Shown: piece after piece, positions 6,461 through 61,860 of the stretch | Layout: each line of letters starts with the position of its first letter | Numbering within the stretch: the first letter of the stretch is position 1 | Assembly (NCBI GenBank): GCA_030390025.1 | Contig: CM059432.1 | Location: forward strand, 21,702,001 to 21,766,000 | DNA length: 64,000 bases | From: Squalus acanthias | Lineage: Eukaryota | Reading direction: 5' to 3' | Program-made: the position numbers and the translations under genes | The notes under the pieces: model-generated | The model's input: only the letters and a program-made list of their open reading frames with translations | What the model was told of the DNA's origin: nothing | Databases searched by the model: none

Positions 6461-6688
6461 TTCAAAATGAATAAACTATACTATATATTACCGGGTCAAT
6501 TAAGCATAAGTTGAAAGATGCCATACAAAACCATGCTTCGGCCTGGACAAATCATTTTAACTTTTGGTGCGAAACGGATGGTTGGCGGGTGGGATGTACT
6601 CACTGCCCGTCTGTTGTTGCTGTTGTGAAGCCCGAGCAATTCTGCATCAATCCCGTGTGTTGTACAAGCCTAATCGAGGCTCCAATGC

Positions 6689-8517
6689 TTCCCACCTACA
6701 TCCGCGACTCTTCCGACGCCCTCCGCCACTTTAACAGTTTCCAGTTTCCCGGCCCCAACCGCCTCCTTTTCACTACGGACTTACAATCCCTCTACACCTT
6801 CATCCCCCACCAGGATGGCCTGAGGGCGCTCCGCTTCTTCCTTGAACAGAGGCCCAACCAGTCCCCATCCACCACCACCCTCTTCCGCCTGGCTGAACTT
6901 GTTCTCACATTGAACAACTTCTCCTTTGACTCCACCCATATCCTCCAAATCAAAGGTGTTGCTATGGGTACCCGCATGGGTCCTAGCTATGCCTGCCTTT
7001 TCGTGGGATATGTGGAACACTCTTTGTTCCAGTCCTACTCGGGTCCCCTCCCCCACCTCTTTTTCCAGTACATTGATGACTGTATCGGTGCCGTCTCCTG
7101 CTCTCACCCTGAACTAGAACATTTCATTCACTATGCTTCCAATTTCCACCCTTCCCTCACCTTCACATGGCCCATCTCTGACTCGACTTCTCCATCTCCA
7201 TCTCTGGGGATAGGTTATTGACTAACATTCACTACAAGCCCACTGACTCCCACAGCTACCTGGACTACACTTCCTCCCACCCCGCCTCCTGTAAGGACTC
7301 TATTCCATTCTCCCAGTTTCTCCATCTCCGCCGCATCTGCTCTGACGATGCCACCTTCCATACCAGTGCTTCCGACATGTCTTCCTTTTTCCTCAACTGA
7401 GGATTCCCCTCTACCGTGGTTGACACGGCCCTCGACCGTGTCCGTTCTATCTCCCGCACTTCTGCCCTCACCCCTGCCCCTCCCTCCCGGAACCACGATA
7501 GAGTTCCCCTTGTCCTCACCTTTCACCCCACCAGCCTTCACATTCAACGGATCATCCTCCGCCATTTCCGCCACCTCCAGCGTGATCCCACCACCAAATG
7601 CATCTTCCCCTCACCTCCCCTTTCAGCATTCCGCAGGGACTGTTCCCTCTGCGACACCCTGGTCCACTCCTCTATCACCCCCAGCATCCCTTCCCCTTTG
7701 CCCGGCACCTTCCCGTGCAAGCGCAGGAGATGCAACACATGCCCTTATACCTCCCCTCTCCTCACTGTCCAGGGCCCCAAACACCCCTTCCAGGTGAAAC
7801 AGCGATTTACTTGTACTTCCTGCAATTTAGTATACTGTATTCGCTGCTCACGATGTGGTCTCCTCTACAATGGGGAGACCAAACGCAGATTGGGTGACCG
7901 CTTTGCGGAACACCTCCGTTCAGTCCGTAAGGGTGACCCTGAGCTTCCAGTCGCCTGTCATTTTAATTCTCCACTCCACTCCCACTCTGACCTCACCGTC
8001 CTCGGCCTCTTGCATTGTTCCACGGAAGCTCAGCGTAAGCTCGAGGAACAGCACCTCATCTTTCGTTTAGGCACTTTACAGCCCTCTGGACTCAACATAG
8101 AGTTCATAAATTTCAGATCATAACCTTGGCCCCTATCACATATATATACTTTTTTATTTTAGTTTTTCATCCACCCTTTTGTTTGGCCTTTTTTTTCCCT
8201 CCCAGAAGCTGGCAGCTGTCCTTCATTCTGCCAGCGCATTTCACACTTCATCTAGCCTCTACCTGTCATATTAACACTTCCTCTTGCCTTGATTATCTCT
8301 TTATGTCTCTTAATCTCTCCTATCCCACCACTGACCTTGCCTTTTGTTCTTTCATCCTCTCCCCCTTTTCCAAGTATTATACTTGCTTTAAATCTATTTC
8401 ATTTCCTGCTTTTTTCCAGTTCTGACGAAAGGTCTTCGACCTTAAACGTTAACTCTGTTTCTCTCTCCATGGATGCTGCCTGGCCTGCTGAGTTTTTCCA
8501 GCATTTTCTGTTGTTAT
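6689..8517 (+). mobile_element. Penelope-like retroelement family 1 (RT + GIY-YIG), 5'-truncated and disrupted
   Basis: RT motifs (DLQSLYT, GVAMGTRMGPSYA, YIDD) in ORF 6511-7221; GIY-YIG region (NLVYCIRCSRCGLLYNGETKRRLGDRFAEH) in ORF 7416-8123; 9-bp duplication CTCCAATGC at 6680-6688 and 8518-8526. Confidence 0.92.
8418..8454 (+). ncRNA. Minimal hammerhead ribozyme motif, G12 mutated
   Basis: AGTT-CTGACGA-A-AGGTC ttc GACCT-TAAA-CGTT-AACT; the core GAAA is changed to TAAA. Confidence 0.7.
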
Positions 8518-11159: not shown

Positions 11160-12335
11160 TCTTGTGGTACGTGAGCCTAGACAGTAAAAGACTCCTGGCA
11201 TCGAGTCTCACTTGTCATTAGCATGGGAGTTACGACTATAACTGTTGGGCTGATTCTGCAACCTCCGCTCCTGTCTAGTGATACTCAACTCCAAGTGGGA
11301 AAAATTCGCTAGCGACCATTTTGGGTTGCTAACATCTCCTGGGCGCTAAATTTAGCGCCTGGCAAAAAATAGCGCCGGCGATCGGTAAATTCAGTTTTAG
11401 CGCCCCAAGAGGGAGGTGGAGCGGTAATTCAAGCTCTCCACTTCCTTCTTAGTGCGCTAACCTCGAAAATCGGAGCAGTGCATTCTGCAGCGCTGCGCAC
11501 TGGGCCACGTAGCACTGCCGCATGGAAGGGCTCTTTCCCTCATTAAAGGGGAGGGCCCAAGCCCACAACTCTGCGGGGCCTACCTGGACCACCAGGTAGC
11601 GGGGTGCCGTGCCAGCAGCCTGGCACACAAGAGGAGTGCCGGGCTGCCAGATCGCGGCACGGACTCCGCGTTCAAAGAGGCAACGGGCCGCGACAAGTAA
11701 GTCGGACGATTTTTTTTCCCGCCCGCCCCTTCCCCTTTACTTATCACCCGTGAGCCTCCTGTTGCTCTGTTTCCGCCCGCTGAATCGGTCGCTGTCATCG
11801 CCCAGCGCAGATTCGGGGGGCGCGGGCCAATTTTGCAGGCGGGGTGAAAACGGGGCGCTGCGCATCACCTGCGCAGTGGAGTGGGGCGCTACCGGTTACC
11901 GCCGTCGCTAAACTCCCGCTGAATTTAGCGGGAGTCGTTAGCGGCGCCGTGCCCGGCCGAAAAGTCGGTTTGCGCCCCGTTAGCGCCCCCCGGAGGAGCT
12001 AACGAGAGGCGCAAATGCACCAAATTTCTAGCCCTTAAGTGCCTTATCTCACAAATTTAGCCAAGCGGCCGCAGTCTATTCTACGGATGAGGTCATCACA
12101 GCAAGTGCAATGCTCTTCTCACCTGACAGCTATTTTCCACCAACTGTGACTGGACAGTGTTCAGGAACTGAAACTCTTTCCTAACCCAGAAACACTGATG
12201 GTAGCATCCCCAGCCAAAGCTTTGGTGAGATCAAATAAGTCAGTACAGACAAGGGATCAAAAGTGGAAGCTTTCTGGTCAATCTGATTCAGTACCGCAGT
12301 CGTAAATCACTTACCGGCACAGTCACGAGGGGAGC
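11160..12335 (-). mobile_element. Ancient tRNA-headed SINE (resembles AmnSINE2), split by a MITE
   Basis: Segments 11160-11290 and 12040-12335 resemble copies at 25780-26610, 42600-42850, 55050-55330 and 58080-58500; family name from recall. Confidence 0.5.
11295..12034. mobile_element. GC-rich palindrome-rich MITE (Harbinger-type)
   Basis: Ends in aaatttctagccc; many gcgcta/tagcgc dyads; homologous along its length to 56348-57058. Confidence 0.75.
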
Positions 12336-12618
12336 TTAACCTTTATTCCTGATTTTCATTATTTATCATAGCGCAATGCAAAATGGACCCATTAACTTGG
12401 AAGTTGGGAGAATTTCGGTGCTCGTTACCGAGTTGTGATTGATAGCAAAGCAAAATCAAAGCACAGCACAACTGCCTGCAGATTTTGCCCCCACCTGCCA
12501 GGTTTACTGAGTCCCCACAGGCCAGGTAAACATTTCAACGTTGAAATATGAATGAAAGGAGCTAAAACACACAATGCAAAGTAATTTATTTCTCTTTATT
12601 GATAATGGGACAGATAAT

Positions 12619-12755
12619 GGGCTCGATTTTCAACTGGCCACCTGGGTGTAAGACTGGCATTGCGAATCAGCCACCCATTGATTGCAGTTGCTGTAACAGA
12701 CGGCCGATCCACAGTGTCAGTTTTACACCTGAGTGGCAAGTTGAAAATCTACCCC
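12619..12755. mobile_element. Short hairpin MITE (about 135 bp)
   Basis: gggctcgattttcaactggccacctgggtgtaagactggca pairs with tgtcagttttacacctgagtggcaagttgaaaatctacccc. Confidence 0.8.
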
Positions 12756-13075
12756 GAAAGTCTTCCCTTCAGCTATAATCTACAGGCTTCTAAAGTCCAA
12801 GCTTGGCAACATTTGACCATTATCTCTTGCTTTATCTTATCTTTTTTCCTGTGCTTTTCAGCTTGGGTGGCGTCTTGCACCTAGTGCACTGGCCTTTTAT
12901 CTAGGTTTCTCAATCATTACAAAATTGGTTTCTGTAGACTGTTAAACAACTGCCTGGATTGAAAGCATATCATCTACATAGATACATAGATACATAGAAG
13001 ATAGGAGCAGGAGTAGGCCATCCGGCCCTTCGAGCCTGCTCCGCCATTTAATGAGATCATGGCTGATCCTCCAAT

Positions 13076-16043
13076 TCAGTATCCCGTCCCCGCCTTCTCT
13101 CCGTAACCCTTAACCCCTTTTGCCTGTAGAAATATATCTAATTCCCTCTTAAATATATTTAATGAGCTGGCGTACACTGCCCTCTGTGGCAATGAGTTCC
13201 ACAGGTTCACCACCCTCTGAGTGAAGAAATTCCCCCTCATTTCTGTCCTAAATGGTTTAGCCCTTATCCTTAAATTATGTCCTCTAGTTCTGTTCTCACC
13301 CGCCAAGGGAAACATTCCTTCTGCATCTAGTCTGTCTAGACCTGTCAGAATTTTATACACTTCTATGAGGTCCCCTCTCAATCTTCTAAACTCCAGTGTG
13401 TACATCCCTAAACTACATAGTCTCTCCTCATAGGTCAATCCCGCCATTCCTGGTATCAGCCTGGTGAATCGCCGCTGCACCCCCTCCATGGCAAGAACAT
13501 CTTTCCTCAGATGAGGCGACCAAAACTGTACACAGTACTCGAGGTGTGGTCTCACCAGTGCCCTGTACAGCTGCAGCAAGGTATCCCTGTTCCTGTATTC
13601 CAACCCTTTTGCTATGAAGGCCAGCATACCGTTTGCCTTCTTGACCGCCTGTTGCACCTGCATGCTCGCCTTCAGTGACTGGTGTACAAGAACACCCAGG
13701 TCTCTCTGTACTTCCCCCTCTCCCAATTTATTGCAATTTAAATAATAATTTGCCCTCCCGTTCCTGCACCCAAGGTGGATAACTTCACACTTGTCCACAT
13801 TATAGTGCATCTGCCATTTATCCGCCCAATCACCCAGTCTGTCCAAATCGCTCTGGAGCTTCCTGGTCTCCTCCTCTGAGCCCACCCCCCCCTCCTAGTT
13901 TAGTGTCGTCTGCAAATTTGGAAATGCTGCATCCGACTCCCTGATCCAGGTCATTAATGTAAATTGTGAACAGCTGGGGACCCAGGACAGATCCCTGTGG
14001 TACCCCACTTGTTACTGCCTGCCATTCAGAAAATGAGCCGTTTATTCCAACTCTCTGTTTTCTATCTGACAGCCAGTTCTCTATCCACATCAATACTTTC
14101 CCCTTTATCCCATGAGCTTCAATTTTCCATGCTAATCTTTTATGTGGGACCTTGTCGAAGGCCTTTTGGAAGTCCAGGTACACCACATCTACTGGCTCTC
14201 CCCCATCTATTTTACCAGTTACTCCCTCAAAAAATTCCAATAGATTAGTCAAGCACGATTTACCCTTTGTAAATCCATGTTGACTCTGTCCTATCCTGTC
14301 CCCATTTGCTAAGTGCTCCGCTATTTCATCCTTAATGATGGACTCCAGCATTTTGCCCACAACTGATGTAAGGCTTACAGGTCTGTAATTACCTGCTTTT
14401 TCCCTACCCCCCTTTTTGAATAGTGGGGTAACGTTAGCTACCCTCCAATCCATGGGCACTGTTCCCGAGTCTAATGAATTCTGAAAAATCATTCTTAGTG
14501 CATCCGCTATCTCTAGGGCCACCTCCTTCAGTACCCTAGGATGCATGTTATCAGGCCCTGGGGATTTGTCCGCCTTCAATCCCTTTAGCTTCCTTAACAC
14601 CATATCCTTAGAGATATTGATTTGCGTCAGTTCCTCCTTTGCCAATGTCCCTATTTTTCCCGATATCCCAGGGAGGTTTTTTGTGTCTTCCTTCGTAAAG
14701 ACTGACCCAAAGTATGCATTTAGTTGGTCTGCCATTTCCTTATTTCCCGTTATATATTCCCCCGTATCTGACTGCAATGGACCAACTTTGGTTTTCACCA
14801 GTCTTTTCCTCTTGATATACTTATAAAAGCTTTTGGAGTTAGTTTTTATATTTTCCGCCAGCTTGCTTTCATAAGCTATTTTGCCCCTCTTGATTAAGCC
14901 CTTTGTCCTCCTTTGCTCTATCTTAAACTGTTCCCAATCTTCCGCTCTGGCGCTTTTTTTGGCTATTTTATACGCCCTATCTTTGGATTTTATGTTGTCT
15001 CTAATTTCCCCTGTTATCCACGGTTGAGTCACCTTTTTAGATTTCCTTTTATGCCAGATTGGTATAAACAATTTTTGCAATTTTGTCATTCTATCTTTAA
15101 ATGCTTGCCATTGTTTATCTACCTCCAGTCCTCCCAGGAACGTTGTCCAATCAGACCTACTCAGTTCCCGTCTAATGGCATCATAATTCCCCTTGTTTAA
15201 ATTCAGGACCTTAGTCTCTGAGTCAATTTCTTCGCTCTCCATTTCGAGTGAGAAATCGATCATGTTATGATCGCTCTGACCCAAGGGTCCCCGTACAACA
15301 AGATTACTAATTAGTCCCTTCTCATTGCACAGTACCCAGTCCAATATAGCCTGTTCCCGAGTTGGTTCCTCGACATATTGATCCAGATAACCATCCCTTA
15401 AACACTCAAGGAATTCCTCCTCCTCATTATTTTTACTGATTAGGCTAGTCCAATCTATATGTAAGTTAAAGTCACCTATGATGACAGCTGTGCTCTTATT
15501 GCACGCTTCTCTAATTTCCCTCGTGATGCCCTCCCCAACCTCTATTTTACTATTTGGAGGCCTATATACCACTCCTATTAATGTTTTTCGCCCCTCGCTA
15601 TTTCTTAGCTCCACCCATATAGATTCTGTATTAACTGAGTTAATATCCTTCCTTTCAATTGCATTTATCCCCTCTTTTACCAGCAATGCTACCCCTCCTC
15701 CCTTTCTTTTTTGTCGATCCTTCCTAAATACTGAATACCCCTGTATGTTAAGCTCCCAGCCCTGCTCACCCTGCAACCATGTTTCCGTAATCCCAATTAG
15801 ATCATAATTATTAACCTCTATTTCCACAGCTAATTCATCTACCTTGTTCCTGATGCTTCTCGCATTAAGGTATAAAACCCTCAGGCTTTTTTTATGCTCA
15901 CATTTTTTATGAATTAGTTTGGCCCTTTGTTTTTTGTTCCTCACCCTTTTACCATTTATTTCTGTCTGCCTTTCACTTTCCTCTATTTCACTACATAGGT
16001 TTCTAGCCCCCTGCCATACTAGTTTAAATGCTCCCGAACTGCT
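13076..16043 (-). CDS. CR1 ORF2: APE endonuclease + reverse transcriptase, with one +1 frameshift in a G8 run
   Basis: YLNARS, ITETW, GDFN and SDH endonuclease motifs; [19 protein letters not shown] and FADD RT motifs. ORFs 13830-15944 and 13076-13885 join if one C is removed from the C8 run at 13885-13892. Confidence 0.93.
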
Positions 16044-16966
16044 TTATCAAAAATTACCGCGAGAACATCAGTTCCATCTTTGCACAGGTGTAGACCGTCC
16101 CTTTTGTATAGGTCACACCTACCACAAAACTGGTTCCAATGCCTCAAAAATTTAAAACCCTCCCTCTTACACCACTGCTCAAGCCACGTATTTAGCCTAA
16201 CTATCCTGTTCTCTGTACTCTTACTAGCACGTGGCACTGGTAGTAATCCAGAGATTACTACCTTCGAGGTCCTACTTTTTAGCTTGGCTCCTAACTCCCT
16301 AAATTCTACTTGTAGGACCTCTTCCCTTTTTTTAGCTACGTCGTTGGTACCAACATGTATCACGACAACTGGCTGTTCCCCCTCCCCCTCCAGAATGTTC
16401 TGCACCCGCGCCGAGACATCCTTGACCCTTGCACCAGGGAGGCAACATACCATCCTGGAGTCTCGGTCGCGACCACAGAAACCCCTATCTATTCCCCTTA
16501 CAATCGAATCCCCTATTACTATAGCCCTGCCACTCTTTTTCCCTCCCTTCTTTGCAACAGAGCCAGTCATGGTGCCATGAGCCTGGCTGCTGGTGCCTTC
16601 CCCCGATGAGTCATCCCCCCCGACAACAGCACCTAAGGCGGTGAACCTGTTGCTAAGGGAGACAACCCCAGGGGATTTCTGCACTACCTTCCTGCCCTTG
16701 CTCTGCCTTTTGGTCACCCATGTACTATCTACGCTGGCCTTAACCTGCGGTGTGACCAACTCACTAAATGTGCTATCCACAACCCTCTCAGAATCGTGGA
16801 TGTTCCAAAGTGAGTCCATCCGCAGCTCAAGGGCCGTCATGCGGTCCCACATGAGCTGCAGCTGGACACACTTCCCGCACACATGGTTGTCAGGGACACA
16901 GGAAGCGTCCCTGATTTCCCACATGTTACAGGAGGAGCATGACGCAGGTCCGAGCTCTACTGCCAT
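16019..16966 (-). CDS. CR1 ORF1: CxxC..CxxC zinc finger/leucine zipper + SGNH esterase (315 aa, intact)
   Basis: CSSC...CGKC, heptad leucines, and GDSIVR, HVGTND, DGLHL SGNH blocks. Confidence 0.93.
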
Positions 16967-17407
16967 GACTTAACCCTTATATTACTTTTTAATTTTCTAG
17001 TTTTAGTTTATTTATTGACTTTTGTTTTCCCAAAGCTTACTTAGACCAATGTATACTGTACTCCTCTTATTCCTTTTTAAACTAACCAAATCCCACTAGT
17101 TTTAGTTCTACTTTCTAGGAAGGTTTGAGGAAAGTACTTACCAGTTAGTCTTACCTCCCTGGTCTTTCGCTGACTTCCCGGTCTTGTGTCCCCTTGGTCC
17201 TACGCCGACTTCCCGCTCCTCCCGGTTCCTGCCCTGCTGAAAAGAAACTGAGACCAAAAAATTTGTGACCTTTGTTTTTAGACTGCTAAAAGACTAGTAG
17301 GTTAGAGGAGGAGGGCGGGTGGGGGTTCCTACTCTGTAGGAACTCGGGTTTAAGCCACCACCCTCCTTAAATGCCATTCACCTGGGTGCTTCCCACCTGG
17401 TCCGCTT

Positions 17408-19008
17408 CCGGTCTCGTCGCTCCCGACAACAGCCTGTGAAGAAAAGCCCGCGAAAGTGAGTTCAAATACTCACAGCACCTCACAGCACCTCCGGTCTCGT
17501 CGCTCCCGACAACAGCCTGTGAAGAAAAGCCCGCGAAAGTGAGTTCAAATACTCACAGCACCTCACAGCACCTCCGGTCTCGTCGCTCCCGACAACAGCC
17601 TGTGAAGAAAAGCCCGCGAAAGTGAGTTCAAATACTCACAGCACCTCACAGCACCTCCTGTCTCGTCGCTCCCGACAACAGCCTGTGAAGAAAAGCCCGC
17701 GAAAGTGAGTTCAAATACTCACAGCACCTCACAGCACCTCCGGTCTCGTCGCTCCCGACAACAGCCTGTGAAGAAAAGACCGCAAAAGTGAGTTCAAATA
17801 CTCACAGCACCTCACAGCACCTCCGGTCTCGTCGCTCCCGACAACAGCCTGTGAAGAAAAGCCCGCGAAAGTGAGTTCAAATACTCACAGCACCTCACAG
17901 CACCTCCGGTCTTGTCGCTCCCGACAACAGCCTGTGAAGAAAAGCCCGCAAAAGTGAGTTCAAATACTCACAGCACCTCACAGCACCTCCGGTCTCGTCG
18001 CTCCCGACAACAGCCTGTGAAGAAAAGCCCGCGAAAGTGAGTTCAAATACTCACAGCACCTCACAGCACCTCCGGTCTCGTCGCTCCCGACAACAGCCTG
18101 TGAAGAAAAGCCCGCGAAAGTGAGTTCAAATACTCACAGCACCTCACAGCACCTCCGGTCTCGTCGCTCCCGACAACAGCCTGTGAAGAAAAGCCCGCGA
18201 AAGTGAGTTCAAATACTCACAGCACCTCACAGCACCTCCGGTCTCGTCGCTCCCGACAACAGCCTGTAAGAAAAGCCCGCGAAAGTGAGTTCAAATACTC
18301 ACAGCACCTCACAGCACCTCCGGTCTCGTCGCTCCCGACAACAGCCTGTGAAGAAAAGCCCGCGAAAGTGAGTTCAAATACTCACAGCACCTCACAGCAC
18401 CTCCGGTCTCGTCGCTCCCGACAACAGCCTGTGAAGAAAAGCCCGCGAAAGTGAGTTCAAATACTCACAGCACCTCACAGCACCTCCAGTCTCGTCGCTC
18501 CCGACAACAGCCTGTGAAGAAAAGCCCGCGAAAGTGAGTTCAAATACTCATAGCACCTCACAGCACCTCCGGTCTCGTCGCTCCCGACAACAGCCTGTGA
18601 AGAAAAGCCCGCGAAAGTGAGTTCAAATACTCACAGCACCTCACAGCACCTCCGGTCTCGTCGCTCCCGACAACAGCCTGTGAAGAAAAGCCCGCGAAAG
18701 TGAGTTCAAATACTCACAGCACCTCACAGCACCTCCGGTCTCGTCGCTCCCGACAACAGCCTGTGAAGAAAAGCCCGCGAAAGTGAGTTCAAATACTCAC
18801 AGCACCTCACAGCACCTCCGGTCTCGTCGCTCCCGACAACAGCCTGTGAAGAAAAGCACGCGAAAGTGAGTTAAAATACTCACAGCACCTCACAGCACCT
18901 CCGGTCTCGTCGCTCCCGACAACAGCCTGTGAAGAAAAGCCCGCAAAAGTGAATTCAAATACTCACAGCACCTCACAGCACCTCCGGTCTCGTCGCTCCC
19001 GACAACAG
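17408..19008 (-). repeat. 83-bp tandem monomer array (19 units plus a partial unit) forming the CR1 5' UTR
   Basis: Unit starts at 17408, 17491, 17574 and so on to 18984; units are nearly identical, with no unique spacers. Confidence 0.97.
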
Positions 19009-19294
19009 TCTGATGAGGAAAGGTAACAGTCATTCCATTTGATTCATCTCATGAAAACTATAACCTACTGTTGTGTGCAAGTCGAAGGTTAATGGTGGTT
19101 GGCGATTAGTTTTTGAGAATAGAAACACCAAGCCAATTATCCTCATGTTCTGGATTTGGATTCCATGTGCTTTCTGTTTGAACTCCTGCCTGCACAGTGA
19201 GCTGGTTAATGAAGAGATAACACTATTTAAGCAACTGACTTAAATAGCTGCATTGAAACTGCAGGTGCGCTTTTGCAGTGCAAAATTGCCAGAA

Positions 19295-20205
19295 GATGGA
19301 GGCTCATTGGTAGCACTCTCACCTCTGAGTCAGTAGGTCGTAGTTTCAAGCCCCACTGACTCCAGAAGCTTGAGCACATAGTCGAGCATGACACTCAGTG
19401 CAGTACTGAGGGAATGCTGCACTGTTGGAAGTGCTGTCTTTGAGATGAGATGCTAAACTGAGGCTCTGTCCATCCTCTTGGGTGGATGTAAAAGATCTCA
19501 TGGCACTATTTGAAGAAGAACAAGGCTTATCTGACCAACGTTTATTTGTCAATCAACATCACTAAAACAGATTACATGGTTATTTATCTCATTGTTGTTT
19601 GTGGGACCTTGCTATGCGCAAGTTAACTGCTTTGACCACGCTCGATCAGCTCCGATGGACGGGTCACATTGTCCGCATGCCCGATACGAGACTCCCAAAA
19701 CAAGCGCTCTACTCGGAGCTCCGGCACGGCAAGAGAGCCCCAGGTGGGCAGAGGAAACGCTTCAAGGACACCCTCAAAGCCTCCTTGAAAAAGTGTAACA
19801 TCCCCACCGACACCTGGGAATCCCTGGCCCAAGACCACACAAAGTGGAGGAGAAGCATCCGGGAAGGCGCCGAACACCTCGAGTCTCTTCGCCGGGAGCA
19901 AGCGGAAGCCAAGCGCAGGCAGCGCAAGGAGCGCACGTTAACCCAAGCACCCCACCCACCTGCTCCTTCAACCACCATCTGCCCCACCTGTGACAGAGAC
20001 TGTAGGTCCCGCATTGGACTCATCAGTCACCTGAGAACTCATTTTTAATGTGGAAGCAAGTCATCCGTGGTTCCGAGGGACTGCCGAAGAAGAAGATTCC
20101 TATAAAACTAAAGTGACTGCACTACACTTCAAAAAGCAGTCATTGGCTATGGAGATATTTGGGATATTGTAAATAGGACTACATAAATCCAGGTTCCTTC
20201 TTTCT
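19295..20205 (+). mobile_element. Deu-domain SINE interrupted by an RTE insertion
   Basis: SINE head and body at 19295-19630; tail resumes at about 20097-20205. Confidence 0.75.
19630..20096 (+). mobile_element. RTE-clade LINE 3' end
   Basis: QLRWTGHIVRMPDTRLPKQALYSEL...GGQRKRFKDTLK, C-terminal CPTC..HLRTH zinc finger and (GAA)n tail. Confidence 0.9.
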
Positions 20206-20479
20206 ATGTAGTACTGGAGCTGATAATCTTCTGTTGGACTGAAGGGCATAAAACCGCTGTGTAGAGCAAGCCTAGCAGCAGATGACAGACACTGGCAATG
20301 CTGTCTGCATGACCAGAGGACCAGGATCCAAATTTGCAGCAATACTGCAGACCTGAACAAGCTAGGTAAGCTGAAGAACAACTTTCTAAGCAAATAATTG
20401 TCCCCAGCATGCATGCTGTAAGGTGATTCACATCAATCTGCCCCATCCAAAGCTTTTATAAATACCTTATCCTGTGCGC

Positions 20480-20690
20480 TGGTATGGTTGCCTAGTGGTT
20501 ATGGTATCTGATTAGCAACCCTGAGGTTGTGAGTTCATAATCCCACCATGGTAATTTGTGAAACTGAATTCAGTAACTCTGGTATTTTGTGGCTGGCACC
20601 AGAAAAAACGAACGCTTCCAGATTGTTGTTAAAAACCCAACTGATTAACTAAGGTCTTCCAGGGAAGGTCAATTGACACCCCTACCCTTT
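20480..20690 (+). mobile_element. tRNA-derived SINE (different family), decayed
   Basis: A/B-box-like tgcctagtgg and gagttcataatccc followed by a non-tRNA body. Confidence 0.5.
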
Positions 20691-20926: not shown

Positions 20927-21403
20927 GGAATAAAAGGGACGTTGGCAGCATGGACACAAAATTGACTAAGTGACAGGAAACAGACAGTAGTGGTGAACGG
21001 TTGTTTTTCGGACTGGAGGAAGGTATACAGTGGTGTTCCCCAGCGGTCGGAACTAGGACCACTGCTTTTCTTGATATATATTAATATCTTGGACTTAGGT
21101 GTACAGGGCACAATATCAAAATTTGCAGTTGACACAAAACTTGGAAGTATAGTGAACAGTGAGGAGGATAGTGATAGAATTCAAGAAGACATAGACAGGC
21201 TGGTGGAATGGATGGACACGTGGCAGATGAAATTTAATGCAGAAAAGTGTGAAGTGATACATTTTGGTAGGAAGAACGAGGAGAGGTAATATAAACTAAA
21301 AATTCTAAAGCTGGGGGTATATGTGAACGAATCATTGAAGGTGGCAGGGCAGGTTGAGAAAGTGGTTAAAAAAGCATATGGGATCCTGGGCTTCATAAAT
21401 AGA

Positions 21404-23600
21404 ATGTCACCCGAGCACAACGCAACGCCATCCACGCTCTCAAGACCAACCGCAACATCGTCATCAAACCAGCGGACAAAGGAGGAGCCATCGTCATACA
21501 GAACAGAATGGACTATTGCAAAGAAGCATACCGACAACTGGACAACCAGGAACACTACAGACAGCTACCCGCAGATCCGACCAAAGAACACACCCGCCAA
21601 CTCAATAGACTGATCAAGACCTTCGATTCAGACATTCAAAACATCCTACGCGCTCTCATCCCACGTACTCCCCGCGTAGGAGACTTTTACTGCCTCCCAA
21701 AGATACACAAAGCCAACACACCCGGACGTCCTATCGTATCAGGCAACGGAACCCTGTGTGAGAACCTCTCTGGGTACGTCGAGGGCATCCAGAAACCCAT
21801 CGTACAGGGAACCCCCAGCCTCTGTCGCGACACTACAGACTTCTTGCAGAAACTCAGCACCCATGGACCAGTTGAACCAGGAACACTCCTCGCCACGATG
21901 GACGTATCGGCACTCTACACCAATATCCCCCACAATGACGGCATCGCTGCGACAGCCTCAGTACTCAACACCAACAACAGCCAATCTCCGGACGCCATCC
22001 TACAACTCATCCGCTTCATCCTTGACCACAATGTCTTCACCTTCGACTACCAGTTTTTTACCCAAACACACGGAACAGCCATGGGGACCAAATTCGCACC
22101 CCAATACGCCAACATCTTCATGCACAAGTTCGAGCAAGACTTCTTCGCTGCACAGGACCTCCAACCAACGCTGTACACCAGATACATCGACGATATCTTC
22201 TTCCTTTGGACCCACGGCGAAGGATCACTGAAAGGACTACATGATAGCATCAACAGGTTCCATCCCACCATCAAACTCACCATGGACTACTCCTCAGAAT
22301 CGGTTTCATTCTTGGACACACGAATCTCCATCAAAGACGGACGCCTCAGCACTTCACTCTACTGCAAGCCCACGGACAACCTCACGATGCTCCACTTCTC
22401 CAGCTTCCACCCTAACCACATTAAAGAAGCCATCCCCTATGGACAAGCCCTGCGAATACACAGGATCTGCTCAGACGAGGAGGAACGCGATGGACACCTA
22501 CGGACACGGAAAGACGCCCTCGTAAGAATGGGATATGACGCTTGACTCGTCGATCGACAGTTCCGACAGGCCACAGCGAAAAACCGCATAGACCTCCTCA
22601 GAAGACGAACACGGGACACAACCAACAGAGTACCCTACGTCGTCCAGTACTTCCCCGGAGCGGAGAAACTACACCATGTTCTTCGCAGCCTTCAACATGT
22701 CATCGATGACGACGAACACCTTGCTAAGGCCATCCCCACGCCTCCACTACTCGCCTTCAAGCAGCCGCCTAACCTCAAAAGTACCATCGTTCGCAGCAAA
22801 TTACCCAGCTTTCAGGAGAACAGCGACCATGACACCACACAACCCTGCCACGGCAACCTCTGCAAGACATGCCAGATCATGGACACATATACCGTCATCA
22901 CACGTGAGGACACTACCCACCAGGTACATGGTACATACTCATGTGACTCGGCCAACGTTGTCTACCTGATACGTTGCAGTAAAGGATGCCCCAGAGCATG
23001 GTACATCGGCGAGACCATGCAGACACTGAGACAACGTATGAACGGACACCGCGCAACAATCGCCAGGCAGGAGGGTTGCCTCCCAGTCGGGGAACACTTC
23101 AGCAGTCAAGGGCATTCAGCCTCGGATCTGCGAGTTAGCGTTCTCCAAGGCGGCCTTCGGGATACATGACAACGCAAAATCATCGAGCAGAAACTGATAG
23201 CCAAGTTCCGCACTCATGAGGATGGCCTCAATCGGGATATTGGGTTCATGTCATGCTACAGAACGTGACTTGACATCGTTGCCAGTCTTTCCAGCTTCTT
23301 AAAAAAACAAACACAAGAAACAAACACAAGAAACAAACCCAAATGGAGAGGATATGCAGCCAGCAGGTGTTTTGACATGTTGGACCCCCTGGGACACATC
23401 TCATTGTCTTGGCTGTGCTCTTAGTATGTCTTTGATGTAGGGATAGATTGAATCTCTGCATTTTCTCTGTGTTTATATTCTGTGAATTCTGGTAGATTGT
23501 CTCACAGTAACTCTACCTGAGGAAGGGGCGACAGCTCCGAAAGCTTGTAATTTTAAATAAATCTGTTGGACTATAACCTGGTGTTGTGCGACTTCTCATT
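21404..23600 (+). mobile_element. Penelope-like retroelement family 2 (RT + GIY-YIG), disrupted
   Basis: RPIVSG, MDVSALYTNI, GTAMGTKFAP, RYIDD; ANVVYLIRC..WYIGET; 12-bp TSD TTCATAAATAGA at 21392-21403 and 23601-23612. Confidence 0.93.
23514..23549 (+). ncRNA. Minimal hammerhead ribozyme motif
   Basis: TAC-CTGAGGA-A-GGGGC gaca GCTCC-GAAA-GCTT-GTA. Confidence 0.75.
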
Positions 23601-27260: not shown

Positions 27261-27974
27261 GTCACTGGAGCAGACCTCTAGCCCCTTTTACCCGTCCTGA
27301 TCCCTAAATGCCAGGAGGGCAACAGAGGCGCATTTGGATGCCAGCAAGAAACCTACTCACTGAAGTCGGGGATTTCCTAATTGGATGTGGGTGGGTGCTT
27401 ATTGGCGCAATTAACGTACTTTAGGAGATGTTAATGAGGTACTTTTAGATTGTGTTTAACTTAGCTCCAAATTTAAATTGAGCAGCACGGGTTTCCCAGG
27501 GGAAACTGACCAGGGAAATAGAGGCGAGTTTGAGCCTCCATGGTGGGTATATAAACTTGTCATTGTCCCATCTGAATAAAAGCTCACTTATTGCAGCTGG
27601 TGTCTCAGTTACCTCTGGCAAAGGTTTGACAGAGAGTGCTTGGGGGTATATTTTAACCTCCAAAAACAGGTGGGTTTGGGTCGGGTGGGAAGTTAAAAGT
27701 TGAAAATCTGAAACAGGGACCGACCCCGCCTTGAACCCACCCACTTCTCATTTTAACGAAGGCGGGACGAGGGGCGGGCGACTAATCAGCTCTCAGGAGG
27801 CGGGTCGGTCTTTGAAACCTTTTAAGGAGGCTGCGTGTTACTCTTTTTACAGGCTTTTTATATTTTTGACCCATGTTGGCCGTATTTCCCGGGCCTCCGA
27901 AAATCCAGCAGGTAAGAGGCGGCAAGAAGGGCTGGATCAATCAGGTAAGTGCCTTTATAACACTGCTTGTGGGC

Positions 27975-28697
27975 CAGGAGGAACACCAGCAGCAGCAGCA
28001 ACCACAAAGAAGCCTTCTCCTCAACGACCTGATGCTCCACAGGAGAGAGGGCATCAGCACAGGGCTGCACCGCGCCGGAGGCGATACCCCCAACACAGGG
28101 TATACAGGCAGAGGATGAGCTTCCACAACATGACTGAGCAGCAGTGCTTCAGGAGGCTCAGGCTATCACGCCAGGTCGTCACAGACATTTGTAGCTTGCT
28201 GGAAGAAGACCTGCTGCCCAGAGGACCTGGTGGACACGCCTTACCAGTGGCTGTCAAAGTTACCACCGCCCTCCGCTTCTTTACCTCAGGCTCCTTCCAG
28301 GGATCTGCAGCAGACATTTGTGGCATCTTGCAGTCGGCTGCCCAAAAATGCATCACACAGGCAACTGATGCCATGTATCTGGTTGGGTCCTCGACATATT
28401 GGTCCAGGAAACCATCCCGTAAACACTCCAGGAATTCCTCCTCCACAGTATTGTTACTAATTTGGTTAGCCCAATCTATATGCAGATTAAAGTCAACCAT
28501 GATGACTGCTGTGCCCTTATTGCACGCTTCTCTAATTTCCCTTTTAATGCCATCCCCAACCTTCGCATTACTGTTTGGAGGTCTATATACCACTCCCACT
28601 AACGTTTTCTGCCCCTAAGGTGGAGATGGCACTAGCAGCGGTGCACATTGCTACCTGGGAGACCCGGGATGGCCTCATAATGGCCAGATTTACTTAG
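27975..28697 (+). pseudogene. Harbinger transposase with its catalytic core replaced by a CR1 fragment
   Basis: [30 protein letters not shown] to 28378; the C-terminus [10 protein letters not shown] resumes after 28616. Confidence 0.82.
28379..28616 (-). mobile_element. Internal CR1 endonuclease fragment
   Basis: [28 protein letters not shown], homologous to 15360-15595. Confidence 0.88.
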
Positions 28698-35049: not shown

Positions 35050-37490
35050 TGACATCTCGTACAACCACACGGCATACATCAATCACTCCTATGGTGACTG
35101 ATGTCAGCAGCCAGTGAATTTTCATCATGTGCATTATGGTAACGTTACCCATTCTTAATACAACACTTCTAAATCATCACTTAAACTCTCCCACAGGTCC
35201 ATCAAATTCCCCCCACTGTCCAGCTGCAGGAGGAAGAGGACTCCTCAGAGGAACCTCCAGCCTCTTTGCAGACTTTGGCGGGGCCATCAGAGGCTCTAAA
35301 ACCCAGAGGACTTCTGCAAAAAGTGTCCAACCAGTCACAGCAGGGAAGTGAGCAGCCTGCCTCTATCTCTGCTGAATCCACAGGGGTTGCACCTCGTAGA
35401 AGCACTCAGAAAGGAAATAAGACACATAAGTAGATACACAAGGGTATGCACCATGTATGAAAAAATGTTAGTGTTAATTTTCAGTTATTTTGATGAATCC
35501 GATAAATGCACCTCTTTCTGGTCTTGTCCATTTTTGCCGGCTACCTGGGAAGTGGCTTTGTCACTTGGAGTGAATGGTGAGACATTACTTAACCTCGAGC
35601 ATTGGGGGTTTGGGTGAGAGGAATGGCTTGGTCATTGTAGGGATGCTTTATGGTGTTGTGGCAGAGGGGAGGGGGGACTTAGTACAGCATGTGGCAGCCA
35701 TATGGGTGCATTGGAGCAGGTTAAGTAAATCTGGCCATGATGAGGCCATCCCGGGCCTCCCGGGCAGCAATATGCGCTGCTGCTGGTGCCATCGGCACCT
35801 CAGGTTCCTCCTCCTCTTCTGCCTTGTCTTGCACTTGCTCCGCCTCCTCCTCTGATGATGATGAAGAGGCTCTGCGTTCTGTGCCTTGATCCTCCTGCAG
35901 CTCCAATCCCTGCTGCTGAGCTATGTTGTGCAGCACGCAGCAAACAACGATGATTCTGGAGACCCTGGCTGATGAGTACTGAAGGACTCCTCCAGATCTG
36001 TCAAGGCATCTGTAGCGCATCTTCAGCATGCCTATTGCTTGCTTTATGGTGGACACGTGGCTGTCATTATAGCGCTCCTCGGCCTCAGTACTTGGCGTCC
36101 TCAAGGGTGTCATCAGCCATGTCTTCAGTGGATAGCCCTTGTCTCCAAGCAGCCAGCGGGTAAGTCTGTTTGGAAGTGCGAAGAGCTGAGGGAGGGTGGA
36201 CTGGCGCAGCATGAAAGAGTCATGACAGCTGCCAGGGAATCTGGCACACACATGCATGATGATCTTTTCATGGTTGCAGATGTGCTGCACATTGAGGGAG
36301 TGGAAGCCCTTGCAGTTCACAAACACTCCTGGGTGATGACGTGGTGCCTTCATGGCCACATGTGTGCAGTTGATGATGCCCTTCACCTGTGGGTAGTCAG
36401 CCAGAGCCACAAAGCTGAGGCCCGCTCAGTAACATTGGCTTAATCAGTGGCAAAGTTGACATAATTGGCTGACTTGTGAAACATGGCATCGGTCACCTGG
36501 GTGATGCATCTGTGGGTGGCCGACTGTGAGATCCCTCAAATGTCTGCTGCAGATCCCTGAAAGGAGCCTGAGGCGAAGAAGTTGAGAGCAATGGTGACTT
36601 TGACAGCCACTAGTAAGGAGTGTCCACCAGGACCTCTGGGCAGCAGGTCTTGTTCCAGCGAGCTACAAATGTCTGCGATGACCTGGTGCAATAGGCTGAG
36701 CCTCCTGAAGCACTGCTGCTCAGTCATATTGAGGAAGCTCATCCCCTGCCTGTATACCCTGTGGTGGGGGTTTCTCCTCCAGTGTGCTGCAGCCCTGTGG
36801 TGCCCGCCTCTTTCCTGTGGAGCATCAGATCGTTGAGGAGAAGGCTGCTCTGGTGGTTGCTGCTGCTGTTGCGGCTGCTGGTGCTGATACTGCTGGTGCT
36901 GGGGTTCACCTTGGTCCGATTCTGAAGACCAAGGTGAGACAGTATAAGCAGCACCCATGCTGATGTAGTAGATGGCAGGTAAAATGGAGATGAGAGGGCC
37001 CATCTCTCAGTGTTGTGATAGTGAGTAGCAATATGGTGAGAGTGGCTTCCGAGGTTTCAGAAATAACCTGCAAACTGCTGACACCTATATCTGTGGACAA
37101 AACGGAGTCAGCAAGCGCCTTTCAAGGCAAGTAATGTGGGAGTATTTATGTGCTTCTCCCAGCTCTCAATGAATGAAATCGCCAATGGCCTCTGAACTCC
37201 CGCCTCCCCTTCACAGGCGAGGTTCCCGAGCTGCATGAATCCCATGCTCCTGCAGTAAAAGTCGAAAGCTGGTGTTAAAAACCTTCTTAAGGGTCTCTCA
37301 ACAAGCAGTTAATGACTTGAATGATGTTGCCCACCTCTGCCGAATGGGTTTGTGTCGCGCCTTCAAAGCCGCCTGAGTTAAATGTGTGAGGTTGTCGGTG
37401 GGTTCCCGATGCGCTGGGAATTTCGGGGATTTTTCCTCTGCCGACCCGCCCCCAAACCCGCATGCTTGGCAACGGGAAAATTCCAAAGCT
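35050..37490 (-). mobile_element. Harbinger transposon with a nearly complete but broken transposase and a deleted Myb-like gene
   Basis: ORFs 36536-37003 and 35721-36410 ([29 protein letters not shown]); 35060-35700 is homologous to 28700-30200 in inverted orientation. Confidence 0.88.
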
Positions 37491-46480: not shown

Positions 46481-46647
46481 ACTCTTTCGGCTAAAACCAA
46501 AGAAAGCCAATAAAGTTGCTGGTGTCACCAGCAACTGGAGTTAATAGCCGCCGAAAATGTCCGCCACACTTAGCCGAGTAAATTTGTCTGGGGGGTTGGA
46601 GAATGGTGGCACAGCACTTACCTTGTGTGCAACGCCCTCCCGGTGGC

Positions 46648-48020
46648 ATTAAACCTGCTGACAAGGGTGGCGCTGTTGTTGTTTGGCAAACCGACCTCTA
46701 CCTAGCGGAGGCTGAACGCCAACTCTCTGACACCTCCTCCTACCTCCCCCTGGACCATGACCCCACTACCGAACATCAAGCCATCATTCCCAAGACTGTC
46801 ACTGACCACATCTCCTCTGGAGATCTTCCCTCCACAGCCACCAACCTCATAGTTCCCCAACCCTGCACAGCCCGCTTCTACCTCCTTCCCAAGATCCACA
46901 AACAGGACTGCCCTGGTAGACCTATCGTTTCAGCCAGTTCTTACCCCACGGAACTTATCTCTTCCTATCTCAACTCTATTTTTTCTCCCCTTGTCCAGTC
47001 TCTTCCCACCTACATCCACGACTCTTCCGACGCCCTCCGCCACTTTAACGGTTTCCAGTTTCCTGGCCCCAACCGTCTCCACCACCACCAAACACATCTT
47101 CCCCTCACCTCCCCTTTCAGCATTCCTTAGGGACCACTCCCTCCGCGACACCCTGGTCCACTCCTCTATCACCCCCAACACCCCTTCCCCTTCGCCCAGC
47201 ACCTTCACGTGCAAGTGCAGGAGATGCAACACATGCCCTTTTACCTCCTCCCTTCCCACTGTCCAGGGCCCCAAACAATCCTTCCAGGTGAAACAGCGAT
47301 TTACTAGTACTTCTTGCAATTTAGTGTACTGCAATCGCTGCTCACGATGCGGTCTCCTCTACATTGGGGAGACCAAACGCAAATTAGGTGGCCACTTTGT
47401 GGAACACCTCCGTTCAGTCCGTAAGGGTGATCCCAATCTTCCGGTCGCCTGTCACTTTAATTCTCCACTCCACTCCCACTCAGACCTCACCATCCTCGGC
47501 CTCTTACACTGTTCCAACGAACCTCAATGTAAGCTCGAGGAACAGCACCTCATCTTTCGATTAGGCACTTTATAGCCTTCTGGACTCAAGATCGAGTTCA
47601 ACAATTTCAGACCATAACCTCGGCCCCTATCTTTTTTTTTCCATTTTTTTTTCTCTCTCATATGGCAGCTGTCGATCATTCTGCCAGTGCCATTTAAACT
47701 TCATCTAGAGTCATCTTTTGTTTCTTAACTTGTCCCATCTCCTTTTGCCTTGCACCATCATCCCTTTTGTCTCTTAATCTCTTCTGCCTTCTATCCTATC
47801 ACAGACCTTCTCTTTTGTTCTTTCCTCCCCTCCCCCTTTCCCTGCCCCTGTACTTGCTCAAAAACCTGTTCCATCTCCAACTTTTTCCAGTTCTGACGAA
47901 GGGTCATCGACCTGAAACGTTAATTCTGTTTCTCTCTCCACAGATGCTGCCTGACCTGCTGAGTATTTCCAGCATTTTCTGTTTTTATTTCAGATTTCCA
48001 GCATCCGCAGTATTTTGCTT
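46648..48020 (+). mobile_element. Penelope family 1, internally deleted
   Basis: KPADKGGAVVV, FYLLPKIHK, GRPIVS; RT core deleted near 47080; GIY-YIG region in ORF 46991-47575; 3' UTR present. Confidence 0.9.
47889..47925 (+). ncRNA. Minimal hammerhead ribozyme motif, intact core
   Basis: AGTT-CTGACGA-A-GGGTC atc GACCT-GAAA-CGTT-AATT. Confidence 0.8.
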
Positions 48021-52946: not shown

Positions 52947-53497
52947 TTGGTGATGGTGAAAGTGATGGTGAAAGTGGAGGTGACGGTGGAGGCAGAGATG
53001 ATTCTGGAGGTGGGAGTAGAGGTGGAGGTGGAGATGCAAATGATGGTGTGGATGAAGGTGATGGTGGAGTTGAAGGCGCTAATGGAGGTGATGGTGGAGG
53101 TGGAGATGATTCTGAAGTTGATGGTGGAGGTGGGGCAGAGATGGAGGTGAAGATAATGGAGATGGAGACGGAGGTGATGATCGAGGTAGAGGTGGAGGTG
53201 GAGATGAAAATGATGGTGGAGATAAAGATAATGGAGGTGAAGGTGATGGTGGAGGTGGAGATGATTCTGGAGTTGATGGAGGTGGGGTAGAGGTGGAGTG
53301 GAGATAATCGAGATGGAGGTGGAGGTGATTATAGAGGTAGAGGTGGAGGTAGAGATGAAAACAATGGTAGAGATGAAGATAATGATGGATGTGAAGGTGA
53401 TGGTGGAGATGGAGATGATGCTGGAGATGGAGGTGGAGTTGGAGATGATGCTGGAGATGATGGTGGAGGTGGAGGTGGAGACGGAGGTGTTGGTGGG
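52947..53497 (+). repeat. Degenerate GTG/GAG/ATG trinucleotide low-complexity tract
   Basis: About 550 bp with almost no C on the plus strand. Confidence 0.9.
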
Positions 53498-59599: not shown

Positions 59600-61860
59600 T
59601 GGGTCAATTTTTTTCTCAGGTTCGCCAATGCTACTTTGGAGGCCCTGGTCCAGGTGGTGGGGGAGGAGGGAGATTATGTTCCCCAGAGGGGGCAGAAAGC
59701 CTTTGAAGAAAAATCTTTGCCGCCAGTGGGAAGAGGTCACTGGGGAGGTCAATGCCAGGACCTGGGCTCCCAGGCCAAGGCTGCAATGCTACAAAAAGTT
59801 CATTGATCTCCCCAGTGTTGCCAAGGTAAGAATATTGCTCTCTTACTCTTTGCTCACACCTTCACCCCCTCCAGCCTCACTATTCACATTACTTCTCTTC
59901 CCTGCTTCCCTTCACTCTCCATGAACACGACAGTGACAACTACCATGATAGAGCCTCTGCAGACAGCTTTGACAGCTGCCATGGAAGCTCAAATGGCTGC
60001 CATCTTGGCTCTGGGTGACCAATGTTGACAGCAGTGTTCAGAGCATCACATCCCTCTTGCACTCTGGGGATACACTTCGTAGGTGCACTAGGATAAGTAA
60101 TGGACCACAGAAGACAGGTGGTTGTACAAGGGCGATTCTAATTTTTTTTTCCAGTTAATTATTAGACACAGATGGAATTGAGTTGTGGGATAAATTTGTT
60201 TTTTTGTTCTAGATTTGCTGTTGGTGTTTATGCTTGTAGTGATTGAGAGCAAGATCCATAAGGCTGGACTGAATAGGATGGTAGGAGTAAAGACGGTGGT
60301 GATAAGGATTTCGGGATTGTTGGTATATTAGGGATGGTTACTGTGAAAAGCTCTGGGATGAGCTGCTTTCTGAGAGCTCTGGCAGCTACGGGCACTGGTG
60401 GTCGATGCTGCTCTTCCTCCTCCTTCTCCTGCTGCAATTCTTGCTGCCCGGGTGGCGCTAAGGGCTGGTTCCTCATGATGACAAAGTTATGCAGCACGCA
60501 GCAGATTAGCATAAATCTGGATAACTGCTCAGGGCTGTACTGCAAAGCTCCTCCTGGACTGTCTGATCGATGATGTTTCTAGTGGCAGCATGGCTCTCTT
60601 TGCAGGCCAGCTCCGCAGCTGTGCCCGGGATCCTGGCAGGAGTCATGAGCCAAGTCTGAAGGCGATAGCCCTTGTTGCCCAGTAGCCAGCCTGTAACCTG
60701 ATGGCCTAGTTGGAAGAAAGGCGGCACAGAGGGGTGGCGCAGGATGAATGAATCATGACTGCTGCCAGGAAACTGGGCACAGACTTGCATATAATGCTGC
60801 CTGTGGTCACAAACCGGCTGGAAGTTGAGGGAGTGGAATCCCTTTCTATTCAGAAAGATGCAGGTTGGTGATGAGGAGCACTCAAGGCAATGTGGGTGCA
60901 GTCTATGGCACCTTGCATCCTGGGGAGGCCTGCAATGCAGTCAAAGTTTAGTGCTCTCTCCTCCTGCTTCACTCTGTCCATGGGGAAAAAGTGTCGGTGT
61001 TCCTCCGGCAGTAGAGAGCTTGGCGACCTCCCTGGTGGACTGCAAACTGGGAAATGAGACTGATGTCACCTGTTGCAGCTTGGAAGGAGCTTGTTGCATA
61101 AAAGTTAAGGGCCACGGTGAGCTTGACAGCCCCAGGCAGTGCTGTCCGTGCACTTGGGTTATGGCTGCAGCAGGTGGCGTAGCTCGGTGATGGCCTCCTT
61201 GGTGAAGTGACATCGCCTGATACATTGCTCCTCAGTCACGATCAGGTAGCAGAAGTGCTCCCTGAAGACCCACTGTGTGTATGACCTCCTGTGCAGTGGC
61301 CTCCTTCTTCCTCTTCTCTCAGCTGCTCCTGCTCTCTCCTGTCTCCTTCTCATCCTGCAGTCCCAAAGGCAGCCACATCAGACCACCTATGACTGCAGTG
61401 AAACTGTTTTGAAAGCAGTCAAGAGCAATGCGGCACCAACATAAATTTCCTTCTGAGTCATCAGTTCTAGAGCTCAGAAATTAGGCCAGAAAATGCCTAG
61501 AAGTTAACCAGTAGACTAAAAGGTTAAACCATCAAATAACCTCTATGTAGTGGATGAGCATTTTAAATGGCGCTGCTGAAGGGCCCTTACTACCTGTTAG
61601 CGCCATGAATTGCTGAGCGAGTTTGTCACATGGCGAATCAGGCACTGAAAAAAAAATGTACGTAAGACCCTTATTCAAATATTTTTATTACTGTTTTGAA
61701 CACTTCTGGTGCGTGCCCTGGGCGACTACTGAGGAATCCAATCCAATATGGCGGGTGCCACACTTCAGGTGCAGGACGGGTGCGCACGCACCGCAGGCCA
61801 CATCTGATGCTTAGGTACCCGTTTTACACCTGGGTTCGCCGCCAACAAATTTCTAGGCTA
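59600..61860 (-). mobile_element. Decayed Harbinger transposon (transposase on minus, Myb/SANT-like exon on plus)
   Basis: Minus: EEQCIRRCHFTKEAITEL, FPGSSHDSFIL, WLLGNKGY, CCVLHN. Plus 59612-59825: REIMFP..WEEV..QCYKKF then AAG|GTAAGA. Terminus aaatttctaggc. Confidence 0.82.

Follow-up and report, generated by a model that had tools for sequence, protein, structure and literature searches.

Here, we describe a CR1 retrotransposon of Squalus acanthias that begins with a tandem array of 83-bp units. Judged by its motifs, the array probably works as a stack of core promoters, in which each unit is the predicted core promoter for the next one. The array heads a near-full-length LINE of 6033 bp on the minus strand of the window (the whole 64,000-nt stretch of DNA that was analysed). 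The parts of this element and its borders are as follows.

19009..19021, minus strand: 5' junction, flank with microhomology to the unit end
17407..19008, minus strand: 5' array of 19 complete units (83 bp) and a partial unit of 27 bp; 55% GC, 112 CpG
16967..17406, minus strand: tether, the non-repeated 5' UTR, 440 nt
17300..17351, minus strand: tether box, consisting of AAACCCGA, a stem-loop and CCTCCTCTAACC; common to published shark CR1 5' UTRs
16019..16966, minus strand: ORF1, 315 aa, intact, with a Cys-rich N-terminus and an SGNH/GDSL esterase
13076..16043, minus strand: ORF2, coding for APE endonuclease plus reverse transcriptase in two frames, with a break near 13890 in a run of G
12976..13075, minus strand: 3' UTR, three terminal TCTATGTA-type octamers, without poly(A)
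19009..19011 and 12973..12975 (3' copy), minus strand: possible 3-bp target duplication AGA, too short for certainty

An earlier sequence-only reading of this DNA had counted 19 tandem units of 83 bp. TRF (17407-19021, period 83, 19.5 copies, 98% matches) and manual phasing on the minus strand (a 27-bp partial unit at the tether side plus 19 full units, about 19.3 x 83 bp) agree on this count, and the proposed continuity with the CR1 5' UTR is confirmed by a gapless joint to the tether. Ten of the 19 units are identical to the consensus, and nine carry private changes (11 substitutions and one 1-bp deletion in all); an extra mismatch at 19009 may belong to the flank rather than to the array. 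As that reading had also stated, there are six CpGs and an E2F-like site, TTTCGCGG, on the sense strand of the element in each unit; both were counted in the phased units, and the site is intact in 15 of 19. The CpG observed/expected ratio is 1.00 in the array and 0.46 in the 64-kb window. No further copies of the unit were found in the window outside the array, and no longer target duplication was detected beyond chance within 4 kb upstream. The unit patterns had 0 matches among metagenome contigs and viral contigs, Rfam gave 0 matches over 16900-19300 at E<=5, and the RNA fold of two units was ordinary (z=0.40). A hammerhead-like reading of the unit was dismissed by eye.

Several other elements are present in the window. 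A Penelope-like element (RT and GIY-YIG-like frames, by eye) lies at 21403-23600 inside a plus-strand CR1 fragment, with a hammerhead-like motif near 23516-23544 in its region and pieces resembling it at 6475-8123 and 46582-47575. Harbinger-like nuclease fragments were seen by eye at 27704-28618 (interleaved with a CR1 endonuclease piece), 35721-37006 and 60506-60940, as was the 3' fragment of an RTE-like LINE at 19566-20090, about 550 bp past the array. A degenerate GA-rich tract with 6/12/18-bp repeats occupies 52949-53489.

Based on its sequence features, we call the element a CR1 of the elasmobranch type, probably a canonical one, and a member of a young family. ORF2 matches RVT_1 and Exo_endo_phos of Pfam, and the best matches of its reverse transcriptase are bird RT proteins (up to 59% identity), whose LINEs we take to be CR1. 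A 3' tail of octamer repeats without poly(A) is a feature of the CR1 clade. ORF1 is of the esterase type (Pfam Lipase_GDSL_2; ORF1 protein of PDB 4c1b, E=2e-29), which is another feature of this clade according to the available part of PMC13343379, and its nearest named relatives are shark and ray proteins (one of a sawshark at 66-68%). A 12-mer of the tether box is present in seven consensus rows of three sharks (supplement of PMC13343379, first 400 nt of each row), which indicates that the tether is a true CR1 5' UTR. The box is possibly a structured RNA element, although its fold is not significant (z -1.2) and has no Rfam match; its stem letters vary among families, and by eye the pairing seems to be kept.

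Some additional observations concern ORF1 and the leader. At 16019-16028 (minus strand), ORF1 ends with TTTAAAC and a stop, overlapped by the open frame of ORF2. A search for ORF1 with flanks in metagenomes gave two distant loci at 32%, of which L001 has no array upstream; the search elsewhere gave four bacterial esterases and no viral relatives. One record filed as a Pseudomonas aeruginosa SGNH hydrolase (P0010, 4-kb contig) is 57% identical to ORF1 and is probably shark or ray DNA. Pieces of CR1 ORF1 also occur in ray and sawfish gene models (P0024, P0058 and P0099; RPS24, TMEM204 and ABHD14A-like isoforms), as a result of either exonisation or annotation error. A lack of upstream ATGs was considered as well: both leader ATGs are private changes, and shuffles of the tether contained 1.4 on average, with a probability of 0.20 for none. 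The idea was dropped because the depletion is not significant.

We have little doubt that the array is part of the element. It differs from its own consensus by 12 changes in 1602 bp (0.75%). In the tether and part of ORF1 (16600-17406), nearly all contigs of other samples differ from the window at 7 of 807 positions (0.87%), and the two divergences are alike (p=0.81). This equality suggests that the array was probably inserted together with the element; in the simplest scenario, the array was homogeneous when it came in with the element and decayed afterwards.

The decay is concentrated at CpG sites. Of the 11 substitutions, six fall on CpG bases, of which there are 228 among 1577 (odds ratio 7.3, p=0.002 in Fisher's test), so that the mutation rate at CpG sites of the array is about seven times that of other sites. 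CpG deaminations were identified at 17784, 17913, 17950, 18488 and 18945, three of the five inside TTTCGCGG (P about 0.06), and the variants near 17784, 17913 and 18488 had rightly been described as CpG transitions before. Silencing by methylation had also been proposed; decay of the methylation type is supported by this substitution spectrum together with the CpG observed/expected ratio of 1.0. It is likely that such a CpG-dense array is a target of host methylation.

To compare the array with other samples, contigs of runs X5, X7 and X9 (from 24 runs listed) were aligned to 16600-17530, a stretch that takes in 1.5 units, the whole tether and the adjoining portion of ORF1; no listed run is recorded as RNA, and the labelling of X7 and X9 as RNA is conjectural. 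At least half of the words of 12000-20500 were found in 18 of the 24 listed runs (organisms A-F and two further rows), a share that would be about the contribution of the CR1 body. For exact 31-mers of the same region the share was 0.53-0.56 in runs of at least six organisms, so that this CR1 family hardly differs among them. Close kinship, slow evolution and horizontal transfer are alternative explanations for this.

In X7 (organism C), a 243-nt contig over 17227-17460 spans the joint between tether and unit, with three other letters and one gap, and one further joint goes back by 83. X9 (organism A) and X7 also contain one 113-nt contig each (83+30) that is identical to the unit, the one in X9 corresponding to 17407-17519. 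These contigs show tandem copies of the unit in two other samples, and a unit next to the tether in a different organism. Two other contigs of X9 (records 22 and 23) reveal that unit and tether are not always paired: one contains the unit end and 30 nt of tether followed by other sequence, and in the other the tether is preceded by a different, T-rich sequence. Leader sharing between elements may be reflected here. X5 provided 12 contigs of a variant unit, in which the GTGAGT part (see below) is kept and TGTCGGGAG lies 10 nt closer to it; a further 83 loose contig ends exist beyond those described. The unit length of 83 bp is close to eight helical turns, and the variant unit of X5 differs by 10 bp.

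These data bear on two further explanations. One is that the array is a one-off, either because a UTR unit was expanded locally after insertion or because the CR1 lies beside, or has captured, an unrelated satellite. The 19 units are indeed far above what is usual in mouse L1, in which young subfamilies average 3-4 monomers and 7 of 5765 loci exceed 10 (available part of PMC9022269), and the summed depth in X5, which is not a copy number, reaches 788,765 in one unit bin compared with at most 179,284 in the tether bins. However, array and body diverge equally, no variants are common to neighbouring units, the tandem form and the tether junction recur in organism C, and a homologous tandem unit opens one of the CR1 consensuses of the catshark (ScyCan_CR1-19; PMC13343379, visible part). 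We therefore regard a one-off origin as quite improbable. The other explanation is that the array length is an assembly artefact, considering that no spanning read or contig stands behind the count of 19. Equal divergence and the lack of variants common to neighbours argue against assembly expansion as well as against later local growth. Moreover, nine of the 19 units have private, CpG-biased changes, no variant block recurs among the 19, and tandem adjacency was found in two other samples, leaving an artefact with hardly any probability.

The candidate core promoter within the unit comprises the following motifs, given for one example unit.

17456..17473, minus strand: inverted repeat GTGAGT-6 nt-ACTCAC, unit positions 44-61, RNA pair probability 0.89-0.94
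17461..17468, minus strand: TATA-like box TATTTGAA, unit positions 49-56, best sense-strand site, two mismatches to the TATA consensus
17448..17455, minus strand: E2F-like site TTTCGCGG, unit positions 62-69, not conserved in relatives
17434..17447, minus strand: pyrimidine run with initiator-like TTCACA, ending in CAG, also splice-acceptor-like

The motifs were judged against the known TATA and initiator consensus motifs. The inverted repeat alone is not significant, as it arises in 9.4% of shuffles. The A of the initiator-like motif is unit position 80 and follows the T of the TATA-like box (position 49) by 31 nt. A TATA-like and initiator pair at such spacing occurred in 0.16% of 5000 shuffles, and in 0 of 5000 when the edge also had to fall within 6 nt; both figures are post hoc. 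The CAG microhomology can be read in more than one way, which places the outer edge of the array anywhere from unit position 81 to 2 and thus 1-5 nt behind the predicted start; the chance of an edge in a given 7-nt window is 8%, and one 5' edge is available. The sequence-only reading had the array stopping mid-unit, which holds in the phase of the tether, but the edge coincides with a particular motif.

Published consensuses (PMC13343379, Supplementary Table 2, first 400 nt of each row) were compared by eye. ScyCan_CR1-19 of the catshark starts with a tandem unit of 80 bp. In it, as in the 83-bp unit, TCGGGAGC precedes the same arms by 36 nt, and the loop between the arms contains a perfect TATA box at the equivalent place. 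RhiTyp_CR1-2a, -7 and -8 begin 32, 35 and 28 nt, respectively, past the position that a TATA-like box occupies within a comparable inverted repeat, the box of RhiTyp_CR1-8 being placed by analogy with RhiTyp_CR1-11. The same arms around an AT-rich core occur twice in a caecilian L2 (RhiBiv_L2-6). The 18-bp core of the 83-bp unit was not found within these 400-nt rows. The comparison suggests that the TATA-like box in the inverted repeat, and not the E2F-like site, is the conserved part of the unit.

This bears on the previous idea of TATA-less, additive CpG monomers driven by E2F and hence tied to the cell cycle. TTTCGCGG is kept in 15 of 19 units and arises in 1.9% of shuffles, and both the CpG observed/expected ratio of 1.0 and the three of five deaminations at this site (P about 0.06) fit such a role. 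However, the motif was picked post hoc and has 12 same-pattern matches elsewhere in the window. It is also absent from the homologous ScyCan_CR1-19 unit and from the first 400 nt of every shark consensus in the supplement, where its two matches are in turtle and sardine. The proposed cell-cycle link finds no comparative support in these visible shark 5' ends, and we consider E2F-driven monomers unlikely.

A role of the unit as a splice cassette has about the same low probability. Under this explanation, splicing from unit to unit, or from a host exon onto a unit, would set the 5' edge and resize the arrays. The 5' arm GTGAGT looks like a splice donor, and the other parts would be a branch-like CTCAC, the pyrimidine run and CAG. 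Donor and acceptor occur together in 0.22% of shuffles; the acceptor passes a looser rule of 9/11 pyrimidines but fails a strict one of 10/11. In addition, the array edge falls at CAG, the variant unit of X5 diverges exactly upstream of GT, and by eye donor- and acceptor-like motifs recur in the units of RhiTyp_CR1-2a, -7, -11 and LeuEri_CR1-1 (visible part of the supplement). On the other hand, the intron within a unit would be 40 nt, and usual vertebrate introns are longer. The donor is paired in the hairpin (0.89-0.94), all 19 units are unspliced, the one joint listed in X9 and X7 is the go-back and not a skip, and no distant target duplication was found that would point to the capture of a host exon. 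The conserved TATA box would also be left unexplained.

We thus return to the stack of core promoters. In this model, the TATA-like box and the initiator would direct RNA polymerase II to begin where the next unit joins, so that the transcript omits the firing unit and retains every unit downstream. A new copy would begin at a unit junction and still carry promoters for later rounds; such retention of the promoter through copying would solve the promoter-loss problem of LINEs. Since at least one unit would be lost per round, arrays would have to regrow, for which slippage, template jumping or unequal exchange may provide routes. Several observations count against this model: the box is two mismatches off the TATA consensus, the pyrimidine-CAG motif is equally readable as a splice acceptor, and the X9 contigs have unit and tether unpaired. 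Moreover, three of the six motif-bearing consensuses do not start near +30, namely ScyCan_CR1-19 (+22), LeuEri_CR1-1 and CarCar_CR1-14, although published consensus starts are soft (PMC13343379, first 400 nt of each row).

A more far-reaching version, which we put forward only tentatively and as a whole, is that vertebrate CR1 and L2 have in common an old, as yet undescribed promoter cartridge, composed of a TATA box in an inverted repeat and an initiator about 30 nt on. The 5' arm might then act as a splice donor, which the hairpin would hide so that RNA started upstream escapes being spliced to pieces; the 3' arm presumably resembles the 5' end of U1 snRNA. Stacked cartridges might be disposable, one being spent per retrotransposition round. 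If true, the array length would be a count of the rounds left to the lineage.

How promoters are retained through copying has been little studied in non-mammalian LINEs. The 83-bp unit is short and near-perfect, has a predicted start and belongs to a young family found in multiple organisms, which makes the question directly testable. The subject concerns abundant elements, as CR1-group elements account for 22-34% of shark and ray genomes (PMC13343379, available part).

The closest functional parallel is mouse L1. As in mouse and rat L1 (A, Tf, Gf), tandem CpG-rich units lie at the extreme 5' end and are followed by a tether and ORF1 of a two-ORF LINE. In mouse L1 the 5' edge is taken as the start of the parent, and duplication maintains the promoter; the same is proposed here. 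According to the accessible part of PMC6454616, truncation sites of mouse L1 mark start sites, and the layout was called a special feature of the mouse; short duplications of 70-100 bp are described for other mammalian L1 (PMC5381506, accessible part). The present element differs in belonging to the CR1 clade, in its unit length (83 bp instead of about 200 bp) and in having 19 units instead of a mean of 3-4. Mouse L1 Tf and Gf have a YY1 site near the start, whereas no YY1-like motif is present in the 83-bp unit; instead, a TATA-like box and an initiator-like site are seen at the unit junction. The previous comparison with additive internal promoters of mouse L1 is therefore acceptable for the monomer-plus-tether layout, but 'additive' is too simple, as monomer activity in mouse is non-linear (PMC9022269, accessible part), and 'internal' does not suit a unit whose conserved part, the TATA-like box, lies ahead of the likely start. 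Our verdict, by analogy, is that the array would work like a mouse L1 monomer promoter without being a member of that system.

Within the CR1 group, some ORF1-less elements carry repeated subunits close to the 5' UTR (1-5 of them, each 100-500 bp long); their function is not given in the available part of PMC13343379, and its main text never uses the word 'promoter'. These are likewise tandem and belong to the same LINE group, whereas ORF1 is present here along with 19 units of 83 bp. By eye, duplicated 5' units are visible in 11 of 63 CR1 rows of whale shark, catshark and dogfish in the supplement of that paper (first 400 nt), many of the remaining 52 rows starting inside ORFs. Consensuses with 5' units include ScyCan_CR1-19, -6, -7a and -7b, SquAca_CR1-7, -9 and -15b, and RhiTyp_CR1-2a, -7 and -11; in these, duplicated units precede a CR1 tether as they do here, but with 2-3 units instead of 19. 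ScyCan_CR1-19 is the closest, having the arms, the spacing and the TCGGGAGC block in common with the 83-bp unit. Tandem units also open TacAcu_L2-1 (echidna), SphPun_L2-6 (tuatara), CalMil_L2-1 (chimaera) and RhiBiv_L2-6 (caecilian) in the same supplement. Independent evolution of the monomers, as claimed before, may hold relative to mouse L1, but 5' units are widespread within the CR1 group. Monomer leaders could thus be a solution that LINE clades have found repeatedly.

In chicken, the 5' UTRs of CR1-B and CR1-F act as promoters of weak activity, that of CR1-B being 241 bp long and containing E boxes (PMC2734521, available part). The likeness lies in a CR1 5' UTR in which subfamilies differ, but activity was measured in chicken only; no array is reported in the available part of that paper, and the 83-bp unit lacks an E box. 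For related phenomena, cases of satellites derived from transposable elements (PMC9659126) and HER1 as the name for a shark LINE (PMC3747384) are found in the available parts of the respective papers. Among open PMC papers and bioRxiv preprints, we found none that describes a promoter array of the monomer or TATA type in a CR1 with ORF1.

In Drosophila HeT-A, with its promoter in the upstream neighbour, and in Dictyostelium TRE5-A, with its A-modules, the promoter is partly outside the element's own RNA and is kept by tandem arrangement. Both belong to other clades, and HeT-A forms tandems of whole elements at telomeres. In summary, the tandem 5'-unit layout is already known and common in the shark CR1 consensuses covered, which limits the surprise. 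What appears to be new, from the sequence, is a very long array on an ORF1-bearing CR1, together with evidence for a conserved unit with a TATA box in a hairpin that points to a precise start.
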